DNA of 64,000 nucleotides from Candidatus Parcubacteria bacterium (GCA_003599755.1 QZJO01000001.1:5222-69221); one strand, 5' to 3'; positions 3,868 through 55,339 are shown, numbered from the stretch's first letter. Notes: a model not told the origin generated them from the sequence alone. Numbers and translations: made by a program.

Positions 3868-4760
3868 ATTTGCATCACTGACGGGCCGGGTCAATATTTT
3901 ATATTCATTGCACATTGATGTTTTACCCGTTACCATAAAAATATGGCTCGGGCTAGGTTTGATTTACCTATTGCTACCGTAAAAAGCCTCTACTGGGAAC
4001 GGGGTTTTTCTCTCGCAAAAATAGGCACCCGTTTTGGGTGCTCATGGAGTACTGTCGCGAATCGTTTGCGGGAGCACCATATTCCTTTGAAGAAAAAGAC
4101 GGAAATGAAAGTACGCTATCAAAAACGGTCATTCATCGGTTCGCTCGAGGAAATGGCGTATTTAGTTGGTTTCCGACTCGGAGATCTGAATGTCTACCGG
4201 CCTTCGATCAATTCAAAAATCGTAGTGGCGCGCTGCCACACTACGGTATCCATGCAAGCAAATCTTATTCGGTCGCTTTTTAAGAAATATGGCGGAGTGC
4301 GAGTTGTCCGTTCCAGTAACGGCATTACCATAAATTGCTTTCTGAATTTATCGTTCGGATTTTTGTTACCAAAAATTTATCCGCAATGGATTCAGCCGCA
4401 ATCAAAACCAATGGCTGCATTCACTGCCGGATATACCGATGCTGAGGGGTCGTTTGGTGTATATCAAGGAAGAGGGCGTTTCAAGCTCGATTCGTATGAT
4501 TATCAGATATTGCGAAATATATATCGTTTCTTGATTATCCAAGGAATTCATGCAAAGTTTTGGTGTATTGCGAAGCGAAATACAGCAAATATCAATGGCG
4601 GACGATGGCGCCACGATCTTTGGCGAATCAACGTCAATGAGGCGAAATCCTTGGTTAAATTTATTCGAATATTGTTGCCCCATTTAAGACATCATAACCG
4701 TATTCAACAAGCGCATGCAGTACTGAAAAATATCCAATCCAGATCCTCATTCACATGAAT
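3868..4760 (+). mobile_element. Low-GC (about 40%) insertion carrying a free-standing homing-endonuclease gene
   Basis: Abrupt GC drop relative to flanking genes (murJ, lepA about 63%). The segment ends exactly at the lepA start codon. Confidence 0.45.
3943..4758 (+). CDS. LAGLIDADG-family homing endonuclease-like protein (double-motif) with N-terminal HTH
   Basis: Two LAGLIDADG-like motifs: 'LVGFRLGDLNV' (about aa 64-74) and 'FTAGYTDAEGSF' (about aa 160-171, with the acidic catalytic residue). N-terminal HTH 'FSLAKIGTRFGCSWSTVANRLRE'. 271 aa. AT-rich codon usage unlike the host. Confidence 0.5.
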   Translation: MARARFDLPIATVKSLYWERGFSLAKIGTRFGCSWSTVANRLREHHIPLKKKTEMKVRYQKRSFIGSLEEMAYLVGFRLGDLNVYRPSINSKIVVARCHTTVSMQANLIRSLFKKYGGVRVVRSSNGITINCFLNLSFGFLLPKIYPQWIQPQSKPMAAFTAGYTDAEGSFGVYQGRGRFKLDSYDYQILRNIYRFLIIQGIHAKFWCIAKRNTANINGGRWRHDLWRINVNEAKSLVKFIRILLPHLRHHNRIQQAHAVLKNIQSRSSFT

Positions 4761-43436: not shown

Positions 43437-44207
43437 ATGTTCGAGCGGGGGGATCTGCTTGTTCTTGCCGGGATTGCAGCGCTTGGCTGCGTCCTTGGCG
43501 TCATCTGGTCGTTGGTCCGACGGGGGCATCTCGCCGGACTGATGCGCTCGGTACGTAACCGAACCGGGCGGATCGTGGCACGAGTGTCGCAATCAGTTCG
43601 CTGGCTGGCTGCGCGCGCGCGAGGCGCTGTACAAATCCTGTGGTTTCGCGCGAGGCCGTGGACGATACGGCATGCGCGTCGCCGAAGAGATCGCATGGCG
43701 CTTCGCGCGTTCTATCTCGTTCGCTGGCTCTGCGCCACGAACAACAACCGCCTCAAGGCCATGTGGATCGTTACGGTCGTGTGGTTCCTCTGGAACTGCC
43801 TGATCATCGGCGTCGGGCCGTCCGCGTCTGAAGCGCCGACGCAAAGCTTCCACTACCCGCACTATCGGACGCCCTCTCCGGCACCAACCCACGTCCTACA
43901 GTCCCTGTGGGACATCTACGGCTTCTGGTCATGGGCGCTCTGGTTTCCATGGCTTCTCGCGACCCTCGTCTACACGCCCATCGCGTTCCGCGATGAGGTG
44001 CAGAACGCATTTCGTCGCGCGACGCAGAAGTTCCGCGAACGGCGCGGCGAGGCGCAGCAGGTGCGGGTGGTGCCTCAGCCAGGTGCTCGGCATCCTGTTC
44101 CCCAGCCGGCTGGCGGAGGCGGGTTAACGCTCGCGCAGTACCTGACCTTCGAGTTCATCACGGACTTCATCCAGGAGATAATCGCACACCGCGTTTTCAC
44201 GCGGTAG
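43437..44207 (+). CDS. Hypothetical 3-TM membrane protein with Arg-rich cytoplasmic loop
   Basis: TM helices at about aa 6-25, 109-130 and 160-185. SD GAGGAGG 4 nt upstream. Confidence 0.5.
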   Translation: MFERGDLLVLAGIAALGCVLGVIWSLVRRGHLAGLMRSVRNRTGRIVARVSQSVRWLAARARGAVQILWFRARPWTIRHARRRRDRMALRAFYLVRWLCATNNNRLKAMWIVTVVWFLWNCLIIGVGPSASEAPTQSFHYPHYRTPSPAPTHVLQSLWDIYGFWSWALWFPWLLATLVYTPIAFRDEVQNAFRRATQKFRERRGEAQQVRVVPQPGARHPVPQPAGGGGLTLAQYLTFEFITDFIQEIIAHRVFTR

Positions 44208-44220
44208 GAGGCAGCTGCGC

Positions 44221-45807
44221 ATGAATCTTCCGACGTTCACCTGGCGGCAGATCTGGGTCACCGGACTGCTGGCCATCATCGCGAGCTTCACGATGTGGAA
44301 GGGCGGCCTGACGACCGCCTTCTGGACGACACTCGGCATCTTCGGCCTGGCCGTTCTCATGGGTCTGGCGGGGATGGTGGGTGGCGTTGGTGGTCGGATA
44401 GCGGCCATCGCGCTCATGATCTGGGCGATCATGTCGGTGGTGTATCCCGCGGTCGGCGCCGCGTTCAGGGCGGAATGGCCGATGCTTTCCTGGGCTCTCC
44501 ACAACAGTAAGGCCATCAAGGACATGGAGCTGGCCGACTGGGTCAATCCAAGCGCGTCTCGCGCGCGGCTCGGTCTCGCTGATCACTGCAACAAGATGGA
44601 GGATCTGCGGGGGGAATACGTCGAGAACGTACTTCTCGAGCGGTATAACGAGACGCGACGGCGCGCCATTCCGGAGAAACCCGGCTACTGGGCGAGCTGG
44701 GCGATCTGGCTTGGTTGGCGGGAAGCGCCAAAGCCGGTCTTCCCCATGCCGCAGCGCTTCGCGGACATGAAGCTTGGCTTCAAGCTCGAGCGCGTGAAGA
44801 AGCCCGAGGTTCGAGACGGCAAGGGCAACCTCGTGTCGGCAGTAGTGACGGAACAGTACGAGGCCTCGATCGCGGATGTGGTCATGATCATCGAGAACGA
44901 GCGCGAGGAGTGCCGCGCGCTGTATGCGCGCGCCGGCAAGCCTGAGCTGCCCGACCGGGACAAGAACGGGAAGTCGTTGGAGTCGCTGACCAAGCACTTC
45001 TCCGATGACCCGCGCCAGTGGCTCCGCGATGTGTTCGTGGGGCCGTGGGCCGTCTGGTCGTTCGCGTTGCTCATCATTGCGGGGCTGCTCCTCGGCCTCG
45101 TGACCAGGCGCGTCTCGTTCAGCATCGCGTTCGGATACATCATCATCACGCTGATCATGGCGGCTGCCATCGACTGGGCTGCCAGTGAGGAGCGCGAGTG
45201 GTTCAAGGGCAAGGCCTACGGAGCAGTCACGACGCGGCACGAGCTTCCTCAGAAGCGCGGCGGCCGTCCGGATGTACCCGGTTCGTATTCGTACGAACGG
45301 TCGGTCCCGCCCACGCTCATCACCCGCGAGGATGATGCGCTCATCGTACGCATCGACGGTTCGCTGCGGCACGGGCACGTCGTTGCAAAGCTCGAGCCGG
45401 GCCAGACCGCGGTGGTCACGTACCTGGGCGGCATGATCGCATACAACTCGCACGGCGACCGGTTCCTGCCATGCGGCCGAGACCATCGCCGGCTCCAGCA
45501 GTGGGAGGTGTTTCCGTACTCTCCAGAACTGCGGCCGTTCGCGATCGGGGTATACCTCGATCCGCCCGGCCTGGGGTCGATGAGCGATCCCACGCAGTTG
45601 CCGTGCGGCAAGGAGCCGCTGAGGATCAAGAACGCCGGTACCGTGCCGGCCAAGCTCGTCTTCATCTATAACACCGCCATGCAGTATCGAGAGGTGCTGG
45701 ACGGCAAGGTGCGGACGGACGGCTACACGTACGCCGGCTGGGACTGCGCAGTGGACCCGGAGAAGAACTGCGCGCGGTTCAAGATCGTCGTGAAGGAGTC
45801 GTCGTAA
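44221..45807 (+). CDS. Hypothetical 5-TM membrane protein with two large extramembrane domains (C-terminal domain Cys-containing)
   Basis: 3 N-terminal TM, about 200-aa soluble domain, 2 TM, then about 220-aa C-terminal domain with 5 Cys. SD TAGGAGG 9 nt upstream. Confidence 0.5.
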   Translation: MNLPTFTWRQIWVTGLLAIIASFTMWKGGLTTAFWTTLGIFGLAVLMGLAGMVGGVGGRIAAIALMIWAIMSVVYPAVGAAFRAEWPMLSWALHNSKAIKDMELADWVNPSASRARLGLADHCNKMEDLRGEYVENVLLERYNETRRRAIPEKPGYWASWAIWLGWREAPKPVFPMPQRFADMKLGFKLERVKKPEVRDGKGNLVSAVVTEQYEASIADVVMIIENEREECRALYARAGKPELPDRDKNGKSLESLTKHFSDDPRQWLRDVFVGPWAVWSFALLIIAGLLLGLVTRRVSFSIAFGYIIITLIMAAAIDWAASEEREWFKGKAYGAVTTRHELPQKRGGRPDVPGSYSYERSVPPTLITREDDALIVRIDGSLRHGHVVAKLEPGQTAVVTYLGGMIAYNSHGDRFLPCGRDHRRLQQWEVFPYSPELRPFAIGVYLDPPGLGSMSDPTQLPCGKEPLRIKNAGTVPAKLVFIYNTAMQYREVLDGKVRTDGYTYAGWDCAVDPEKNCARFKIVVKESS

Positions 45808-46037: not shown

Positions 46038-46073
46038 CTACATTCCAACATTCTTGAGAATGTTGGAATGTTA
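46038..46073. promoter_or_regulatory. Perfect 14-2-14 AT-rich palindrome P1 (CATTCCAACATTCT-TG-AGAATGTTGGAATG) upstream of the gtrA-like gene; putative operator
   Basis: Read directly. Shares the core CATTCT-TG-AGAATG with P4 at 55308. Confidence 0.45.
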
Positions 46074-46185: not shown

Positions 46186-46791
46186 ATGCAAAAGCGCGAT
46201 GTGTTCGGGAGTATCGTCATCGGCATTGTTGCCGGTTTTTTGATGTATCTGATCGGCACGAATCTGCCCGATCTGGCCCCCGCGGTTCGGGATTGGCTCT
46301 GGGTGCTACCCATCGGCTTTCCGGTTGCCACGCTTGTTGCCATGGTCGTGGGCTCGTTCATCGGCCGGCGCATCCCGGTTGTCTATCAGCTCACCAAGTT
46401 CTTGCTCGTCGGCGGGCAGAACTTCCTTATTGATCTTGGCGTCCTCAATCTCCTGATCGCCTCGACCGGCATCGAGCAGGGCACCGAGATCGTCGTTTTC
46501 AAGGCGGTATCGTTCGTCGTCGCGGTGATCGCGAGTTTCTTTTGGAACAAATTCTGGACGTTCCGGTCGCTGTCCGTGGAGCGCGCCGGGTTCCAATTTT
46601 TTGAATTCTTCATCGTTTCGGCCATCGGCCTTGGCATCAACACCGGCTCGTTTGCCCTGGCCAACAACGTCGTCGGCGCGCAGTACGGCCTGAGCCCGGA
46701 GGCATGGGCCAACGTGAGCGCGGGCATTGCCGCGATCATCGGCCTGATGTGGAACTTCATCGGCTACAAATTCATCGTCTTCCGCCGCTAA
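46186..46791 (+). CDS. GtrA-family membrane protein (lipid-linked sugar translocation/polysaccharide synthesis)
   Basis: C-terminal 130 aa match the GtrA fold ('KFLLVGGQNFLIDLGVLNLLI', 'FFWNKFWTFR'). Extra N-terminal TM helices. Confidence 0.65.
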   Translation: MQKRDVFGSIVIGIVAGFLMYLIGTNLPDLAPAVRDWLWVLPIGFPVATLVAMVVGSFIGRRIPVVYQLTKFLLVGGQNFLIDLGVLNLLIASTGIEQGTEIVVFKAVSFVVAVIASFFWNKFWTFRSLSVERAGFQFFEFFIVSAIGLGINTGSFALANNVVGAQYGLSPEAWANVSAGIAAIIGLMWNFIGYKFIVFRR

Positions 46792-46816: not shown

Positions 46817-46848
46817 TTATTCTAATGTTCTTAAGAACATTAGAATAA
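46817..46848. promoter_or_regulatory. Perfect 32-nt palindrome P2 (TTATTCTAATGTTCTTAAGAACATTAGAATAA) 14 nt upstream of arsR; putative ArsR operator
   Basis: Read directly. AT-rich 16-0-16 palindrome typical of ArsR/SmtB operators. Confidence 0.5.
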
Positions 46849-46861
46849 AACAAAATGGAAT

Positions 46862-47146
46862 ATGGCAGAGCGCGGGGGAAAGTCGTTTCGAGAGTTAGAG
46901 CGCATCGTGCGGGGGTTTTCAAACCATCGCCGCATCGAAATCATGGGATTGCTCGATCGGATGCCGGAGCTTTCCTTGCTGGATGTCGCCAAATCGCTGC
47001 ATATCAATTTCAAAACTGCATCTGAGCATATCCGCCGGCTTGCCATTGCCGGCCTTGTTCTTAAAAGAAATGACGGCCATTCGGTGCGCCACGCTCTTGC
47101 GCCCCGTGGCAAACTTATTCTTAAGTTCTTAAGAACATTAGAATAA
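46862..47146 (+). CDS. ArsR/SmtB-family winged-HTH transcriptional regulator (no metal-binding Cys motifs evident)
   Basis: 94 aa. 'RRIEIMGLLDRMPELSLLDVAKSLHINFKTASEHIRRLAIAGLV' HTH. The stop overlaps the downstream ATG (TAATG). Confidence 0.7.
   Translation: MAERGGKSFRELERIVRGFSNHRRIEIMGLLDRMPELSLLDVAKSLHINFKTASEHIRRLAIAGLVLKRNDGHSVRHALAPRGKLILKFLRTLE
47115..47146. promoter_or_regulatory. Near-perfect copy of palindrome P3 (TTATTCTTAAGTTCTTAAGAACATTAGAATAA) overlapping the arsR 3' end and the start of the large secreted-protein gene
   Basis: Read directly. Differs from P2 at 2-3 positions in the left arm. Confidence 0.5.
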
Positions 47147-50100
47147 TGGCGCGCGGAAAACGACCGTGGATTCGCATCGTAGTGGGCGCCGGTCTTCCGC
47201 TGGTCGGGATCTGTATTGCCGTGCGAGCCGAGGCGGCGCAGTGCATTACCGAGCCGTTTGCGCAGGGATACTTTTTTAGTGACTACGAAGCGGTTGCATA
47301 TCAAGACGGGTTTCTGGCGCTTCATTATCGGATCGGCACCGAGCAGTTTAATGATGGCAGGACATTTCGCCTCGGATTTTCGGTATTCTCTGATACCTGC
47401 GACACGGCAATGCTTGATGTTTTCAATCAATTTGTCGTTGCGTTTCCGCCGGCTACGCAGGGATTTAGTATTCGTTTTACTTCCTCTTCGACATATGAGG
47501 TATGGAACGACGATATGAATACCCGTGCGGAATGCGCGGGCTGTCAGGGCGTTCTTCCTGTCTTTCCCTCCTACTACCAGATGCGCGTGAATGGCTTTAT
47601 TGATGGAGGCGCAAGCGTACTTCACGGAACATCGCATACGATTATCGAACATGCGGCCGGGCCGCCCATTCGAGGCGCGGCGCCTAACCCTCCCGATGCT
47701 TGCCCCGAGCAGGGTCTGAATGCCACGGGATACTACTTTGATGCGTTCGAACGCATCGAGCGATTGAACGGCGAGCTAGTGTACCAATTTCGACTCAAGA
47801 CGCCCTTTAATGACGGGAGAGGCGGTATCCTCTTCTTTGAGCTTTTCGATGCGGCATGCAATTCGCAGGGAATAATTCCATTTTACGATCGATTGGCGAT
47901 GACACCGCGTTCCCGGTATTTCAGCCTCCGATTTACCGATCGAACGAAATATGAGTTTTGGGACGATGACCACGAAATGCCTATTGATTGTCCTGCTTGT
48001 TCCGGCGAGTTACCGCCAGTGCTGTCGAATGGCGAGCCCTATGCATACGTGAGAGTGCGCGGCCGGATAGATGGAGCTGCTTCAACGCTTTCGTCCACGC
48101 TATTCCCTCTTGAAGGCGATGTCCCGTGTTGCTCGAACGTGCTATTTCTGCCGGGGCTCCAAGGGAGCCGGCTGTATCGTCCTGGCGAGGATCAACTTTG
48201 GGAGCCGACGCGGAATCAAGATATTGAAGAACTATATCTCGCAAACAACGGGCAGAGTTTGAATGCCGAGATTTATACCCGGGATATCATCGATGAGGCG
48301 CCGCGGATCATCAACGGCTATAACGTATATAAAAAATTCATCCAGTTCATGGATGAAGAATTAGTGGGGCAGGGAATCATCGATGAATGGAAAGCGATTC
48401 CCTATGACTGGCGACTCGACCTACCGTATATCATGCACGACGGTAAGAAAGTCGGCGAGACGGAGGGCGAAGACAATATCTCGTACATTGGCTCCACATC
48501 CACGCCGTATCTTATTCAAGAACTCGAGCGACTCGCGAATACATCGCGATCGGGTCGCGTGACGATCATCGCGCACTCCAACGGCGGGTTACTGGCCAAA
48601 TATTTGTTATCACAGATCGCCCCTCCTCATAGCCAGTACCATCATCTTTTCGCGAAGATCGATAAAGTAATACTCGTGGCGGTACCGCAGATCGGAACGC
48701 CTGCGGCAATCGAAGGCCTTCTCCACGGCGATGAACCTCAGCTGGGGGCAAATGTCGGTGTTACGGATTGGGGTTTTCTCGTAGACGAAGAGCGAGCGCG
48801 CGAACTTGCTGAGAATATGCAAAGCGCTTACAACCTTTTGCCGTCGCAGACGTATTTCGAGTTGGTGCAAAGTCCTATGGTGGAATTCGAATCGTCGACG
48901 GCGCGCGCCTACGATTTTCGCTCTTTTTACGACGGCACTATCGACTCGACCGAAGAGCTCAAGAGTTTTCTTGCGGGCGAACCGCATATACAGGGTCGTA
49001 GCGAACCGTTTGCCGACGACGAAGAATCGCCGAATGTACTGGATGCAAATATGCTCGCGTCGGCTATGCAGATGCATGCCGTGCTCGATAATTGGGCCCC
49101 TCCGGGCGGTATTGAAGTGGTCCAGATTGCCGGCTGGGGCATCAAGACCGTTCGCGGGATAAAGTATTCGTGCGGATTCTTCACATGCTCATCATTGAGT
49201 ACGCTTGACCGGGAGATTCTAAAAACGCACGAGGGAGACGGGACGGTTGTGCTGCCAAGTGCGGTAGCGATGGAGGAAGCGGAGAATGTTGAGAAATATT
49301 ATGTAAATCTGAGTAATTATAACGGAGAGCTTAGAAACCTCCGGAGAAACCGCGATCACGCGAGTATTTTAGAAGCCGATCCTACAAGGGCGTTTCTTAA
49401 AGAGATTATTAAAAATGATAAAAATTTAATAAAGCACGTAACATCCTCCATCCCGTCGGGCGAAGATCTCCTTACTCTTGATTATGCTATTCATTCACCT
49501 GTTGATATCCATCTGTATGATGCAGACAGTAATCATACCGGTCCTATTTCTAACCCATTACAGAACTCTGATTTCTTGGCATATGAAGCAACTATTCCAA
49601 ATTCCTATTATTGGGAATATGGTGAGACAAAATATGCTGGCTCAGATGCCATGACTGGAACGCTGGTGCAGTTGGTTGGTACGGCTACCGGCACATTTAC
49701 ATTCGATATTATCGAGAATCGGGGAGATGAAATTTTGGCAACAACAACCTTTAGAGATATTCCTGTTGGGATAGGATCCGTGCTTACCATGCGGATTGAT
49801 ACGATTGCGAGTTCAACATCGTTGCGAATGGATTTTGATGGAGATGGAATCATCGAAACGGATATTCTTCCGGGCGAAGGCATTACAACGAATGAGCTCA
49901 TTGGAATTATGAAAGGTCTCGTTAAAACGTTCAGCCTAACCGAGGAAGAGGAGAAAGGGCTTATTAAAGCGCTTGATAAATTCGAGAAAAATCTTGGCAA
50001 GGATTTCAAAGACGAAGAAAAAAGAAAAAAGAAGCTCGGACAGGCACTAGATTCAGTTGCGGGAAAGATCGAAAAATATGGGCAGAAAGAAGTTCTTTCG

Positions 50101-50163
50101 CCGGATGAGTTATTGCAGTTGATAAATTTTATAGATGAAATTAGGACTAAAGTGTTAGATTGA
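47146..50163 (+). CDS. Large secreted multidomain protein: signal peptide, two tandem paralogous Cys-containing domains, LCAT/PGAP1-like alpha/beta-hydrolase (phospholipase/acyltransferase-like) domain, low-GC beta-rich and coiled-coil C-terminal module
   Basis: Signal peptide 'MARGKRPWIRIVVGAGLPLVGICIAVRAEA'. Internal duplication (ECAGCQGVLP / DCPACSGELP). 'AIPYDWRLDLPYIM' resembles the LCAT 'APYDWRL' motif. Nucleophile elbow 'VTIIAHSNGGLLAKY'. GC drops from about 52% to about 38% at about 49290. Confidence 0.6.
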   Translation: MARGKRPWIRIVVGAGLPLVGICIAVRAEAAQCITEPFAQGYFFSDYEAVAYQDGFLALHYRIGTEQFNDGRTFRLGFSVFSDTCDTAMLDVFNQFVVAFPPATQGFSIRFTSSSTYEVWNDDMNTRAECAGCQGVLPVFPSYYQMRVNGFIDGGASVLHGTSHTIIEHAAGPPIRGAAPNPPDACPEQGLNATGYYFDAFERIERLNGELVYQFRLKTPFNDGRGGILFFELFDAACNSQGIIPFYDRLAMTPRSRYFSLRFTDRTKYEFWDDDHEMPIDCPACSGELPPVLSNGEPYAYVRVRGRIDGAASTLSSTLFPLEGDVPCCSNVLFLPGLQGSRLYRPGEDQLWEPTRNQDIEELYLANNGQSLNAEIYTRDIIDEAPRIINGYNVYKKFIQFMDEELVGQGIIDEWKAIPYDWRLDLPYIMHDGKKVGETEGEDNISYIGSTSTPYLIQELERLANTSRSGRVTIIAHSNGGLLAKYLLSQIAPPHSQYHHLFAKIDKVILVAVPQIGTPAAIEGLLHGDEPQLGANVGVTDWGFLVDEERARELAENMQSAYNLLPSQTYFELVQSPMVEFESSTARAYDFRSFYDGTIDSTEELKSFLAGEPHIQGRSEPFADDEESPNVLDANMLASAMQMHAVLDNWAPPGGIEVVQIAGWGIKTVRGIKYSCGFFTCSSLSTLDREILKTHEGDGTVVLPSAVAMEEAENVEKYYVNLSNYNGELRNLRRNRDHASILEADPTRAFLKEIIKNDKNLIKHVTSSIPSGEDLLTLDYAIHSPVDIHLYDADSNHTGPISNPLQNSDFLAYEATIPNSYYWEYGETKYAGSDAMTGTLVQLVGTATGTFTFDIIENRGDEILATTTFRDIPVGIGSVLTMRIDTIASSTSLRMDFDGDGIIETDILPGEGITTNELIGIMKGLVKTFSLTEEEEKGLIKALDKFEKNLGKDFKDEEKRKKKLGQALDSVAGKIEKYGQKEVLSPDELLQLINFIDEIRTKVLD

Positions 50164-50166
50164 AAT

Positions 50167-50592
50167 ATGTCTCATAGACAGAAAATAGCTGTAATAGTTA
50201 CTATCTCCGTATTAATTTTCGGTTCTGTATGGTTTGTTTGTGCAGAAGAATGTCCTAATATAAGTCGCTTCCTAGATCCTGAATCTGAAGAGGCAATAGT
50301 GCTTTCTGCAGTTTTATTCCTTCCATCGATTTTCTTAATTTCACTTATGCTCTTCTTTTTTGGAGAAGAGACATTCCGCCTTTGGTTTAATTTTGCCAAA
50401 TTTTACTTACCAATTACGATCGCGTTTATTATTTGGTCTGCGTATGTTTCAAGCAGCACGAGCTGGGGAATAAGTACCGGATCGGATGCTGAATCTTTCG
50501 CTTGGTTTTTTGCGATTCTATTCCTCATTATTTCTGTATCTCTAATCTCCTGGAAATCTTGGCGACTACGGAAAGGATCAGCAGGGAGATAA
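50167..50592 (+). CDS. Small 4-TM membrane protein (low-GC; immunity-protein-like placement)
   Basis: 141 aa with four hydrophobic helices, AT-rich codons. Starts 4 nt after the stop of the large secreted-protein gene. Confidence 0.5.
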   Translation: MSHRQKIAVIVTISVLIFGSVWFVCAEECPNISRFLDPESEEAIVLSAVLFLPSIFLISLMLFFFGEETFRLWFNFAKFYLPITIAFIIWSAYVSSSTSWGISTGSDAESFAWFFAILFLIISVSLISWKSWRLRKGSAGR

Positions 50593-50655
50593 CGGAGTGA
50601 CATCGGATGTCGGTACCGCTATTTAACTCCTGGCCCGTTTCAGTTTTATTCTAAT

Positions 50656-50877
50656 ATGCTCGTTGCCGAAGGCAAACTTGATGCGCGCATTGCGTTTGAT
50701 CCTTGGGGTTATGACTATGATTTCGCCTCCGGCGTATTGCTCATTGCCGAAGCCGGCGGCCGCGTGACAAACATTGGCAGCACGACCTACGACTACCGTA
50801 ATACGAATTTCATTGCCGCAAATCCGGTAATTTTTGAAGAACTCACGAAAGGTCCGGACGCCATATTCCCATTGTGA
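50656..50877 (+). pseudogene. C-terminal remnant (about 73 aa) of an inositol-monophosphatase-family (SuhB/CysQ-like) gene; the 5' part is missing
   Basis: 'LVAEGKLDARIAFDPWGYDYDFASGVLLIAEAGGRVTN' matches the IMPase C-terminal 'WDxAAGxLIxxEAGGxVTD' region. No N-terminal metal-binding motifs occur upstream, where the low-GC insert lies. Confidence 0.55.
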
Positions 50878-51407
50878 AAAAGCAAACGAATTGGATTGTT
50901 TTTACTGGCGCTCCAAACTCGGGGAAGTCCAGTGCGCTCGAGCGAATGTCATTCCTCGGATATAAAACCGTGCCCGAGAACGCCCGCCTTTTCATTGATC
51001 AAGAAGTGAGCCAAGGAAGAGCGGTCAGTGATATCCGCGCAGATGAGCAAGAGTTTCAAAGAAAGATTCTCGCTCTTAACAAGGAAGTAGCTGAACGGTT
51101 CCCTTCCGAAGAACTTACGTTTTTTGATAGAGGTCTGGGGGACAGCATTGCGTATTTCACCGTGCACCGGATGGATCCTGCGCCTGCCATTCAAGCAGCG
51201 CGAGATATTCAATACCGAAAAGTATTTCTGTTTGATCGTTTGGCATCACAACGAAATCAATTTGGCGATGAACAGATAGCCAGCGAAATTGAAGCGGCGA
51301 TCGAGCGAGCCTATACGGACTTGGGATATGAGATCACTCGGGTTCCGGCGGTTTCCATACCGGAACGAGTCACATTAATTTTGGATACTCTTGAGTTAGA
51401 GGGGTAA
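50874..51407 (+). CDS. P-loop NTPase (AAA_28/predicted kinase-ATPase family)
   Basis: 'IVFTGAPNSGKSSALE' Walker A, 'FFDRGLGDSIAY' Walker B-like. About 50% GC. Confidence 0.6.
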   Translation: MKKQTNWIVFTGAPNSGKSSALERMSFLGYKTVPENARLFIDQEVSQGRAVSDIRADEQEFQRKILALNKEVAERFPSEELTFFDRGLGDSIAYFTVHRMDPAPAIQAARDIQYRKVFLFDRLASQRNQFGDEQIASEIEAAIERAYTDLGYEITRVPAVSIPERVTLILDTLELEG

Positions 51408-51517
51408 GGGTTGTCCGATACTATTCATAATTTGCCCTGTGAAATACCGCAATGGCCTCTCTTGAGGCGATAGGGTATCTTCAAGGAGCTTAGAATCATA
51501 AGCCCGCACGGATATTT

Positions 51518-52558
51518 ATGCCCAAGGAAGAAAAAGCCGAGAAACTGCGCGCATTGGAAGATACGGTCAAAGAGCTCCAGGACAAGTTCGGGGAAGGGGC
51601 GCTGATGATGCTTGGCGAGGCCCGGAAGGTCAACGTGGATGTCATCCCGACCGGCTCGCTTGCCCTGGATATGGCCCTTGGCGTGGGCGGGATGCCCAGA
51701 GGCCGGGTGGTGGAGATATTCGGCCCCGAATCTTCGGGCAAGACCACGCTCGCGCTCCATATCGTTGCCCAAGCCCAAAAGAAGGGCGGGCTTGCGGCAT
51801 TCGTGGATGCCGAGCATGCCCTGGACCCGGACTATGCCAAGCGCCTCGGCGTGAAGGTCAACGAGCTTTTGATATCCCAGCCCGACACCGGCGAGCAGGC
51901 CTTGGAGATCGTGGATTCGCTCGTGCGCTCGGGTTCCATGGACGTGGTGGTGATCGACTCGGTGGCCGCGCTCACACCCCGGGCCGAGATCGAGGGCGAC
52001 ATGGGCCAGCAGCACGTCGGCCTGCAGGCGCGCTTGATGTCGCATGCGCTCCGGAAATTGACGGGGTCGGTGTCGCGCACCAAGACCGTGGTGATTTTCA
52101 TCAACCAGATACGGATGCAGATCGGCATCATGTTCGGCAACCCCGAGACCACGCCCGGGGGCAAGGCCCTGAAATTCTATTCGTCCGTGCGCGTGGAGGT
52201 GCGCCGTGCGGCGCAAATCAAGAAAGGGGACGAGATCATCGGCAACCGGGTGAACGCCAAGGTAGTGAAGAACAAGGTTGCCGCGCCGTTTCGTCGCGCG
52301 GAGTTCGACATCTTCTACAACGAAGGCATTTCGCATGAGGCCGAATTGCTGATCCTTGGCGAAAAGTACGGGGTACTCAAGAAATCGGGTGCTTCGTACC
52401 TGTTCGGCGGCACGCGCCTCGGCCAGGGCTTTGATAACGCCCGCAATTTCCTGAAGGAAAATGGGAAGATCGCCGATGAGATAGCCAAAAAAATCAAAGA
52501 CGCCGCGGCTTCCGGCGTGGTCCCGGAACCAAAGGGCAAAGGAAAAGAGGAGGATTAG
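51518..52558 (+). CDS. recA: Recombinase RecA
   Basis: '[19 protein letters not shown]' Walker A, 'VVIDSVAAL', L2 loop. 346 aa. Confidence 0.95.
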
Positions 52559-55307: not shown

Positions 55308-55339
55308 ACATTCTCACATTCTTGAGAATGTGAGAATGT
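55308..55339. promoter_or_regulatory. Perfect 15-2-15 AT-rich palindrome P4 (ACATTCTCACATTCT-TG-AGAATGTGAGAATGT) between convergent genes
   Basis: Read directly. Same core and TG spacer as P1. Confidence 0.45.

Follow-up and report, generated by a model that had tools for sequence, protein, structure and literature searches.

A codon-usage step inside the gene for an LCAT-like hydrolase of a Candidatus Parcubacteria bacterium

How an uninterrupted reading frame comes to change its codon usage partway along its length is the question raised by a gene for a hydrolase of 1005 amino acids (aa) in a Candidatus Parcubacteria bacterium. The gene lies in a stretch of 64,000 nucleotides (nt; GCA_003599755.1 QZJO01000001.1:5222-69221), referred to in its entirety as the window, from a host with a guanine-plus-cytosine (GC) content of ~60%, and it is followed by a small gene for a protein with four transmembrane (TM) helices. 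An earlier reading of the sequence, here the original prediction, had proposed that a foreign cassette consisting of a C-terminal module and the membrane-protein gene was recombined in-frame onto the hydrolase gene, following the logic of toxin/immunity cassette exchange. Our survey shows that the GC drop inside the hydrolase gene is real, and that the whole block around it (46.8-50.66 kb), comprising the genes of an ArsR-like helix-turn-helix (HTH) regulator, the hydrolase and the TM protein, is foreign to its 60% GC host. We see an even chance that this HTH-hydrolase-TM operon was acquired horizontally from a lower-GC Patescibacterium, the step being an inherited extreme of a compositional polarity found across the hydrolase family.

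The composition break and the enzyme it divides

A likelihood change-point search at the nucleotide level places the maximum-likelihood (ML) break at nt 49,285, with a log-likelihood ratio (LLR) of 22.3. Third codon positions place it at codon 713 (LLR 18.0, the highest value among 300 codon shuffles being 7.9), with a support interval of two log-likelihood units that spans codons 699-741 (nt 49,243-49,369), in agreement with the abrupt switch originally predicted near 49290. GC content amounts to 0.523 over 46,817-49,284, 0.398 over 49,285-50,645 and 0.481 over 50,646-51,450, and GC content at third codon positions (GC3) moves from 0.57 ahead of the break to 0.37 past it and 0.32 in the TM gene. 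It is synonymous choice that shifts, not amino-acid content (Mantel-Haenszel test stratified by amino acid, chi2 = 47.3, p = 6e-12), which bears out the reported turn to A/T-ending codons; GC3 past the break was observed at 0.36, whereas codon usage as in the 5' part would give 0.54 and host usage 0.70. The right edge is softer (ML 50,561, support 50,403-50,666, LLR 10.6), and the low-GC tract runs, as first described, through the TM gene to end at a remnant of an inositol monophosphatase (IMPase) gene.

The hydrolase is treated below in segments N (residues 1-327), A (328-712) and B (713-1005), the last of which comprises B1, for the most part a beta-sandwich (713-910), and B2, the helical tail (911-1005), and TM stands for the downstream membrane-protein gene or its product. 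Residue numbers of the window hydrolase, where prefixed with q, serve also as alignment coordinates for its homologues. The two open reading frames (ORFs) of the original prediction and their landmarks, some of them taken from AlphaFold2 (AF2) models, are as follows.

47146-50163, + strand: hydrolase ORF, 1005 aa, continuous as originally described
47146-48126, + strand: segment N, residues 1-327, GC3 0.54, with a signal-peptide-like start and a duplicated ~150-aa domain
48127-49284, + strand: segment A, residues 328-712, bulk of the LCAT/LPLA2-like alpha/beta-hydrolase domain, GC3 0.59
48577-48579, + strand: Ser478, the nucleophile, in the motif AHSNGG
49237-49239, + strand: Asp698, in the motif GDGTV
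49357-49359, + strand: His738, catalytic
49243-49369, + strand: support interval of the change point (ML 49,285, codon 713)
49285-50163, + strand: segment B, residues 713-1005, GC 0.40, GC3 0.37
49471-49866, + strand: beta-sandwich within B, residues ~776-907 (AF2 models)
49888-50157, + strand: four-helix bundle within B, residues ~915-1004 (AF2 models)
50167-50592, + strand: four-TM partner gene, 141 aa, GC 0.38, GC3 0.32, 3 nt past the hydrolase stop

The product is 100% identical to the database entry 'alpha/beta hydrolase [Candidatus Parcubacteria bacterium]', and residues 389-742 match the Pfam family PF02450 (LCAT) with E = 2.3e-9 and 37.4 bits, above the cut-off of 21; searches of NCBIfam and PADLOC gave no match. 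In an alignment with homologues (n=26), AHSNGG with Ser478, GDGTV with Asp698 and His738 are invariant, and when solved structures are searched with a profile, the Ser and Asp motifs fall on AHSMG and GDGDGTV of LPLA2. The AF2 model of residues 328-1005 is confident (predicted local distance difference, pLDDT, 85.0; predicted template-modelling score, pTM, 0.85). Its top Foldseek matches in the PDB are LPLA2 structures (4x92/4x97/4x90, E = 4e-13 to 1e-12, target-normalised template-modelling score 0.63-0.66), followed by LCAT (overall range for both enzymes, E = 4e-13 to 1e-10, score 0.6-0.66), and the type VI secretion system lipase effector Tle4 ranks behind them (E = 2.9e-9). By homology, the protein should be a Ser-Asp-His acyl hydrolase or transferase acting on phospholipids. 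Ahead of this domain, the N-terminus looks signal-peptide-like by eye, and cross-matching high-scoring segment pairs to homologue P0006 reveal within segment N an internal duplication of a ~150-aa, Cys-containing domain that belongs to no Pfam family.

The break falls between Asp698 and His738, and because a core beta-strand (q715-721) and a helix (q745-755) still follow residue 713 in the model, together with the His loop, it lies inside the catalytic fold and not at a module boundary: residues 713 to ~755 form the last hydrolase strand, the His loop and a helix. The model of residues 745-1005 (pLDDT 89.7) then shows a beta-sandwich with a weak likeness to DUF4425, followed by a four-helix bundle that resembles generic helical bundles; no toxin-like fold occurs among the PDB matches of this region, and no Pfam family covers it.

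Both halves of the gene belong to the same family. There are 876 significant homologues, the best of which (P0002-P0005) share 61-64% identity with the window protein, and alignment is uninterrupted from residue ~328 to the last residue in these four and end to end in dozens of others, collinearity over residues 328-1005 extending to more than 100 homologues from Parcubacteria. P0002-P0005, at loci L010, L001, L002 and L012, share 69-72% of their residues with the window protein in A, 58-61% in B1 and 33-41% in B2, and are top-ranked in every segment. Their genomes have a GC content of 38-49%, and their B and TM segments (GC 0.32-0.48) resemble those of the window. The variable part of the family is the N-terminal domain, of beta-helix/NosD type in P0002, P0004 and P0005, of the duplicated type in the window or of other types elsewhere; these differences among the closest relatives imply N-terminal shuffling within a close clade.

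The TM gene shares this conservation. On the contigs of the closest relatives, a homologous membrane-protein gene begins 3-4 nt past the hydrolase gene. A scan of species-representative genomes matched at least 600 stretches, at least 565 of them encoding hydrolase relatives, from which 80 loci were kept; a hidden Markov model (HMM) built from 6 orthologues finds a TM homologue directly downstream and on the same strand, usually within ~30 nt, at 61 of the 72 related loci with sufficient sequence to check. The 3' part of the hydrolase gene and the TM gene are thus ancestral, conserved parts of a two-gene unit present throughout Parcubacteria. This divides the original claim of a foreign cassette recombined in-frame: the low-GC tract is indeed foreign to the genome in composition, but the grafting of a new C-terminal module is not supported, residues 328-1005 being collinear with the family and the TM gene being part of it.

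A foreign block and a family-wide polarity

The mean GC of the window is 59-60%, with a GC3 of 0.65-0.84 in long host genes. Against this background stands a GC-poor stretch between two host-like genes, GtrA (46186-46791, GC3 0.80) and recA (51518-52558, GC3 0.79), in which GC3 is 0.32-0.59 over 46.86-51.4 kb, compared with 0.77 in the flanking genes and 0.70-0.74 expected from host usage. Its features beyond the hydrolase and its partner are these.

46817-46848: perfect 32-nt palindrome, putative operator, left edge of the block
46862-47146, + strand: gene for an ArsR/SmtB-like winged-helix regulator, 94 aa, GC3 0.55 (Pfam, NCBIfam)
47115-47146: second copy of the palindrome, 2 mismatches, coincident with the final 32 nt of the HTH gene and abutting the hydrolase start
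50646-50660: palindrome half-site TTATTCTAATATGCT with 4 matching flanking nt, right edge of the block
50656-50877, + strand: IMPase remnant, 73 aa, only the C-terminal ~60 domain residues, GC3 0.54 (Pfam Inositol_P, E = 5e-10)
50874-51407, + strand: AAA_28 P-loop gene (Pfam), GC3 0.46, the last gene ahead of the host-like recA

The first 713 codons of the hydrolase, the HTH gene, the IMPase remnant and the AAA_28 gene are likewise far from host usage (GC3 0.46-0.59), so that the 5' part of the hydrolase, initially described as host- or island-like, is not host-like (GC3 0.57 versus 0.65-0.84). A family-wide regression of segment GC3 on the GC3 of flanking genes (slopes 0.91 for A, 0.80 for B and 0.47 for TM) predicts 0.74, 0.64 and 0.55 for a resident gene at the host value of 0.77, and 0.59, 0.37 and 0.32 are observed; B and TM lie 3.4-3.9 residual standard deviations (SD) under the host-based prediction, and A lies 1.9 SD under it. 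A donor with a GC3 near 0.5 fits A, B and TM within ~1-1.6 residual SD (calculated by hand from the regression fits) and also accounts for the values of the HTH gene, the IMPase remnant and the AAA_28 gene.

The step itself has counterparts across the family. GC3 is higher in A than in B at 86% of 83 other loci (mean difference 0.065, SD 0.061, Wilcoxon p = 3.5e-12), and the gene-centred mean GC3 profile peaks at +0.078 over q688-711, falls to -0.068, -0.129 and -0.073 over q712-783 and stays slightly negative thereafter. Profile bins correlate with GC at codon positions 1+2 (r = 0.67) and with conservation (r = 0.61). Five loci that are only 36-45% identical to the query (L019, L026, L027, L058 and L067) step down in GC3 by 0.20-0.22 (z 5.0-5.7) at change points within q709-740, next to a step of 0.22 (z = 5.8) in the window and a family distribution of z with mean 1.6 and SD 1.5; no locus shows a comparable low-to-high step. 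These five are scattered on the neighbour-joining tree, their sisters show little or no step, and none of them displays discordance between A and B1. In L027, from a 54% GC genome, the same trough is limited to B and TM, and in low-GC hosts of the L019 type it is A that stands out as a GC-rich bump. The window is an extreme case of this general family polarity, for which selection on codons, biased gene conversion and repeated 3' replacement are candidate causes.

Taken together, these trends suggest the following course of events, to which we give an even chance. The HTH-hydrolase-TM operon, ~3.8 kb in length (46,817-50,660), would have been imported as one piece from a lower-GC Patescibacterium with a GC3 near 0.5, already bearing a family polarity under which A would use G/C-ending codons more than the remainder of the gene and TM do, with the sharpest contrast right past the catalytic-Asp motif. 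The step at 49,285 would then be a strong local form of that polarity and not a graft junction. Because no donor or near-identical relative was found, the single transfer is read from composition.

Several observations weigh against this reading. The window step stands at the family extreme, and the mean profile explains only ~0.06 of it; the polarity has no established mechanism; and both edges of the low-GC tract are fairly sharp, as would be expected after a replacement. GC at codon positions 1+2 matches the GC3 of each segment, which is equally expected had the two halves long evolved in different genomes. Amelioration disequilibrium (GC3 ahead of GC at positions 1+2) is seen in neither half in what is a low-power test. 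Searching separately with the 3' part, as had been suggested for identifying the donor lineage, returned no near-identical relative and no closer donor: the nearest relatives reach 53-55% identity with residues 713-1005 as query and 48% with the TM protein, and exact look-ups with the window hydrolase gave no contig. Scans for ORFs and Pfam families reveal no integrase, and there is neither a tRNA gene nor any Rfam family in the whole 64-kb window, the block edges included.

Rival origins of the step

The rival that survives best is a homologous in-frame replacement, in which the last ~880 nt of the hydrolase gene together with TM (49,285 to ~50,650) would derive from a related low-GC (~40%) Patescibacterium allele, either in this genome or in the donor before the transfer, leaving a mosaic of two homologous alleles with no new module. 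We hold it to be possible, on the unlikely side. The sharp and sustained step speaks for it, its left edge lying at 49,285 (support about -40/+85 nt) and its right edge at 50,403-50,666, where the TM gene ends and the truncated palindrome is found. So do the composition of B and TM, which equals that of low-GC relatives, their larger deficit relative to the host-based prediction, and the internal equilibration of each half. Moreover, intragenic recombination is shown elsewhere in the family, and the last 95 residues of the window protein are unusually divergent. What it has to overcome is that both halves have the same nearest relatives at proportional distances, that a step of the same direction recurs at the same aligned codon in five scattered homologues with no discordance and none reversed, and that two successive foreign acquisitions at one locus would be needed because the 5' half is also non-host. 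The donor search found none, and the catalytic-Asp DNA motif is no exceptional anchor of homology: as a candidate crossover site it was rejected, its longest exact match of 17 nt being equalled or exceeded elsewhere in the gene.

Neighbours and distances were compared across segments with 84 family members. The nearest neighbours of the window locus are L010, L002 and L001 in A and in B1 alike, its B1 distance is no greater than A predicts (residual -0.11), and no phylogenetic discordance between A and B1 appears across the break. The same test does pick up true swaps: L021 and L012 are 95% identical in B2, compared with 48% in A, 44% in B1 and 26-42% in TM, and P0004 and P0005 bear a P0012-type tail (70-80% identity, versus 23-50% upstream); a matching GC3 change point lies at q873-893 in L002 and L012. 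The swap point lies near residue 905 and concerns the ~95-aa four-helix tail (aligned to window 49,860-50,160), with the TM gene staying behind. Since swaps are detected at the tail and N-domains differ, and no swap is detected at 713, module exchange is demonstrated at the tail and implied at the N-terminus. Alternative C-termini, which the original prediction had suggested looking for in relatives, are therefore found at ~905 and exclude the TM gene, and are not found at residue 713, across which identity passes from 69-72% to 58-61% and alignment stays collinear to the stop. The B2 of the window is itself unusually divergent (33-41% identity, compared with 55-71% for relatives at similar A distance) and may be another tail type; composition is unchanged at that point.

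Other routes to exchange were considered and rejected. A joint cassette of the tail and the N-terminal half of the TM protein (partial r 0.19) fits L002 and L213, in which this half of the TM protein is alike, but not L012 and L021. Gene conversion among paralogues finds no partner, as the window holds no paralogue, and genomes with two copies show no trend. The split gene of Giovannonibacteria (840 aa + 268 aa, L006-L009), which might have marked a natural module boundary, reflects instead a +1 frameshift at AGA-AGG between the catalytic Asp and His (L006, 7486-7540), with the His codon inside a 13-nt gap. In L007-L009 the upstream hydrolase part is broken up further, and the 268-aa product is found on dozens of contigs; the split gene is either a pseudogene or, less likely, a case of programmed frameshifting. 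Stand-alone C-terminal ORFs (P0124), candidates for orphan cassettes, likewise proved to be frameshift products.

A broader variant would see in codon ~713 a recurrent recombination hotspot bounding an exchangeable 3' unit of beta-sandwich, helical tail and four-TM partner, which we consider doubtful. If it were true, lineages would replace the 3' unit repeatedly, mostly from the low-GC majority of the phylum, so that unrelated genomes would come to bear an equal high-to-low step, with sparse sampling hiding the discordance, and the secreted phospholipase, part of a system spread across Patescibacteria, would act as an effector with a membrane-embedded partner for self-protection or anchoring.

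That the step was created during assembly, homologous genes of two populations being joined near 49,230-49,250 and the host contig being rejoined near the repeated palindrome, strikes us as highly unlikely. The break does follow a motif conserved in DNA, which matches even a homologue of 69% identity exactly over 17 nt, the right edge lies at a sequence repeated across many Patescibacteria genomes, and no independent contig with the junction was found, an exact 77-nt search over it in metagenome contigs giving no match, not even to the source contig itself. An assembly origin would, however, call for no fewer than two mis-joins, and more realistically for four, because the HTH gene with the 5' half and the IMPase remnant with AAA_28 are also non-host. 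The shared stretches measure 15-23 nt, and assemblers usually use longer k-mers; neither the reading frame nor the catalytic fold is interrupted, and the AF2 model is confident through the junction; the one contig returns to host composition on either side; and similar steps occur in independent assemblies of other genomes.

The graft of a non-homologous C-terminal module with its cognate membrane gene, on the polymorphic toxin/immunity logic of the original prediction, is barely tenable, for although the partner gene lies immediately 3' of the hydrolase gene, stands in 2-4 tandem copies in L037, L034 and L047 and follows a Tle4-like catalytic domain with a demonstrably exchangeable helical tail, the last 293 residues and the TM gene are shared by the family in conserved, collinear form, the junction would split the catalytic triad, the C-terminal fold has no similarity to toxins, TM does not track the tail (partial r 0.15-0.19, TM homologues being kept whatever the tail type), and the end that varies in the family is the N-terminal one.

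The regulator, the partner and known systems

The acquired operon, in the reading that we favour, would carry its own regulation. The HTH stop overlaps the hydrolase start (TAATG), and the HTH protein matches the NCBIfam ArsR/SmtB model NF033788 (E = 1.7e-9, 37 bits against a cut-off of 55) and, at E ~1e-3, the Pfam families HTH_5, HTH_24 and MarR (19.8 bits for HTH_5 against a cut-off of 22). The palindrome reads TTATTCTAATGTTCTT followed by AAGAACATTAGAATAA, its perfect 16+16 copy standing just 5' of the HTH gene, and has 6 matches with at most 3 mismatches in the window, where 0.16 would be expected. More than 120 metagenome contigs, with a GC of 0.28-0.58, contain exact copies of its central 26 nt, 2-4 of them in L158 and L207; the palindrome is absent from viral contigs. 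Promoter and terminator scans stay at chance level. Among the 120 palindrome loci listed (L093-L212), 34 adjoin HTH homologues with 56-83% identity, and HTH homologues elsewhere end in ...LMFLRTLE before the stop, with this C-terminus encoded by the palindrome; the remaining sites stand 5' of diverse genes, for example RadC-like and metallo-beta-lactamase-like ones. Judged from these patterns, the palindrome and the HTH protein may form a portable ArsR-type repressor-operator module controlling the hydrolase operon, in which the ArsR-like protein would repress the lipase through the palindromes.

At the right end of the block, the half-site at 50646-50660 is cut at its centre by the 73-aa ORF, which we take to be an IMPase remnant because its match covers just positions 201-261 of the 271-position Pfam model; the truncated third palindrome would then be a scar of deletion or rearrangement marking the right end of the imported unit.

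Further palindromes and other features of interest occur outside the block. A second, related palindrome class, ACATTCCAACATTCT-TG-AGAATGTTGGAATGT, with the shared half-site ATTCYAAYRTTCT, occurs at window positions 46040-46071, in host-composition DNA upstream of GtrA, and 55308-55339, and its variants co-occur with the first class in seven metagenome loci (L145, L155, L169, L184, L187, L198 and L210). At L152 (4250-7788), an HTH homologue with 72% identity and the palindrome precede a distant LCAT-like hydrolase (24% identity), possibly a second, independent instance in which this regulator controls a lipase. Far from the block, a gene at 3943-4758 with low GC (GC 0.43, GC3 0.42) in a region of host composition encodes a protein like LAGLIDADG homing endonucleases with an N-terminal HTH, and is probably another mobile insertion; a match to the palindrome half-site with 3 mismatches lies within it at 4661-4676. 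Two genes of 256 aa and 528 aa at 43437-45807, of host composition (GC3 0.84 for the 528-aa gene), are membrane-protein-like and have no Pfam match.

The TM protein has no match in Pfam, NCBIfam or PADLOC, and its four helices follow from the original prediction and from hydrophobic stretches read from the translation. The tandem TM genes 3' of the hydrolase noted above recall arrays of immunity genes. Three roles can be envisioned for the partner, which may anchor the enzyme via its tail, handle its products or shield the membrane of the producer. By analogy with its relatives, the enzyme itself would be a secreted or surface phospholipase A or acyltransferase, engaged in lipid scavenging or in attack on membranes. 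Bacteria of the Candidate Phyla Radiation lack lipid synthesis and are enriched in lysolipids, possibly through phospholipase A acting on the lipids of other cells, and Patescibacteria are thought to obtain their membrane lipids from other cells (PMC7242380), which makes the pair of lipase and four-TM protein a candidate for lipid scavenging or attack on host membranes. Genes of phospholipase type have been reported among the horizontally transferred genes of Patescibacteria (PMC12455944), and our literature searches returned no paper connecting LCAT-family proteins with Patescibacteria. The step itself would be ordinary, the product of a horizontally acquired and compositionally uneven operon and not of a new system of toxin/immunity-type cassettes; what the locus offers as an entry point is the pairing of lipase and TM gene, the exchange of modules at the N-terminus and the tail along with a position-specific GC3 polarity, and the widely conserved palindrome.

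With genomic islets and mosaic genes, the block shares its non-host GC3 between GtrA and recA, a truncated gene at its edge and an intragenic change point. Mosaic genes such as pbp and tbpB of naturally transformable bacteria arise by homologous recombination. The window block differs in that no integrase, tRNA, direct-repeat scar, donor or discordance was found, and, compared with classic one-off mosaics, in that unrelated members of the family show the step at the same codon too.

The likeness to polymorphic toxins (CdiA-CT/CdiI, Rhs-CT) and to Tle/Tli pairs consists in a secreted lipase-like protein followed by a small gene, the structural match to Tle4, the swapping of the extreme C-terminal ~95 residues within the family and the tandem partner copies at some loci. 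By contrast, the enzyme domain here is central and conserved, the swapped tail is a helical bundle, the partner does not co-vary with it, and there is no pre-toxin motif and, in the window, no orphan C-terminal or immunity module.

As in ArsR/SmtB autorepressors, a small winged-helix protein is accompanied by a palindrome 5' of its own gene and another before the next gene. The window regulator departs from them in scoring under the curated cut-offs, in having a putative operator embedded in the 3' coding end of its own gene and in a palindrome of which exact copies stand on more than 120 contigs that differ widely in GC; an exact 32-nt palindrome across such different genomes suggests a portable repressor-operator module. 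The pair sdpR-sdpI, a repressor and a membrane immunity protein, offers a loose analogy.

The closest likeness is to LCAT and LPLA2 (PLA2G15, PF02450), with which the hydrolase shares the PYDWR, AHSxG and GDGTV motifs and the His, a Pfam match above the gathering score and its best PDB matches. Set against these enzymes, the window protein is bacterial, putatively secreted and ~1000 residues long, is 16-18% identical to the solved structures, and adds a variable N-domain, a C-terminal beta-sandwich with a four-helix bundle, and a four-TM partner gene.

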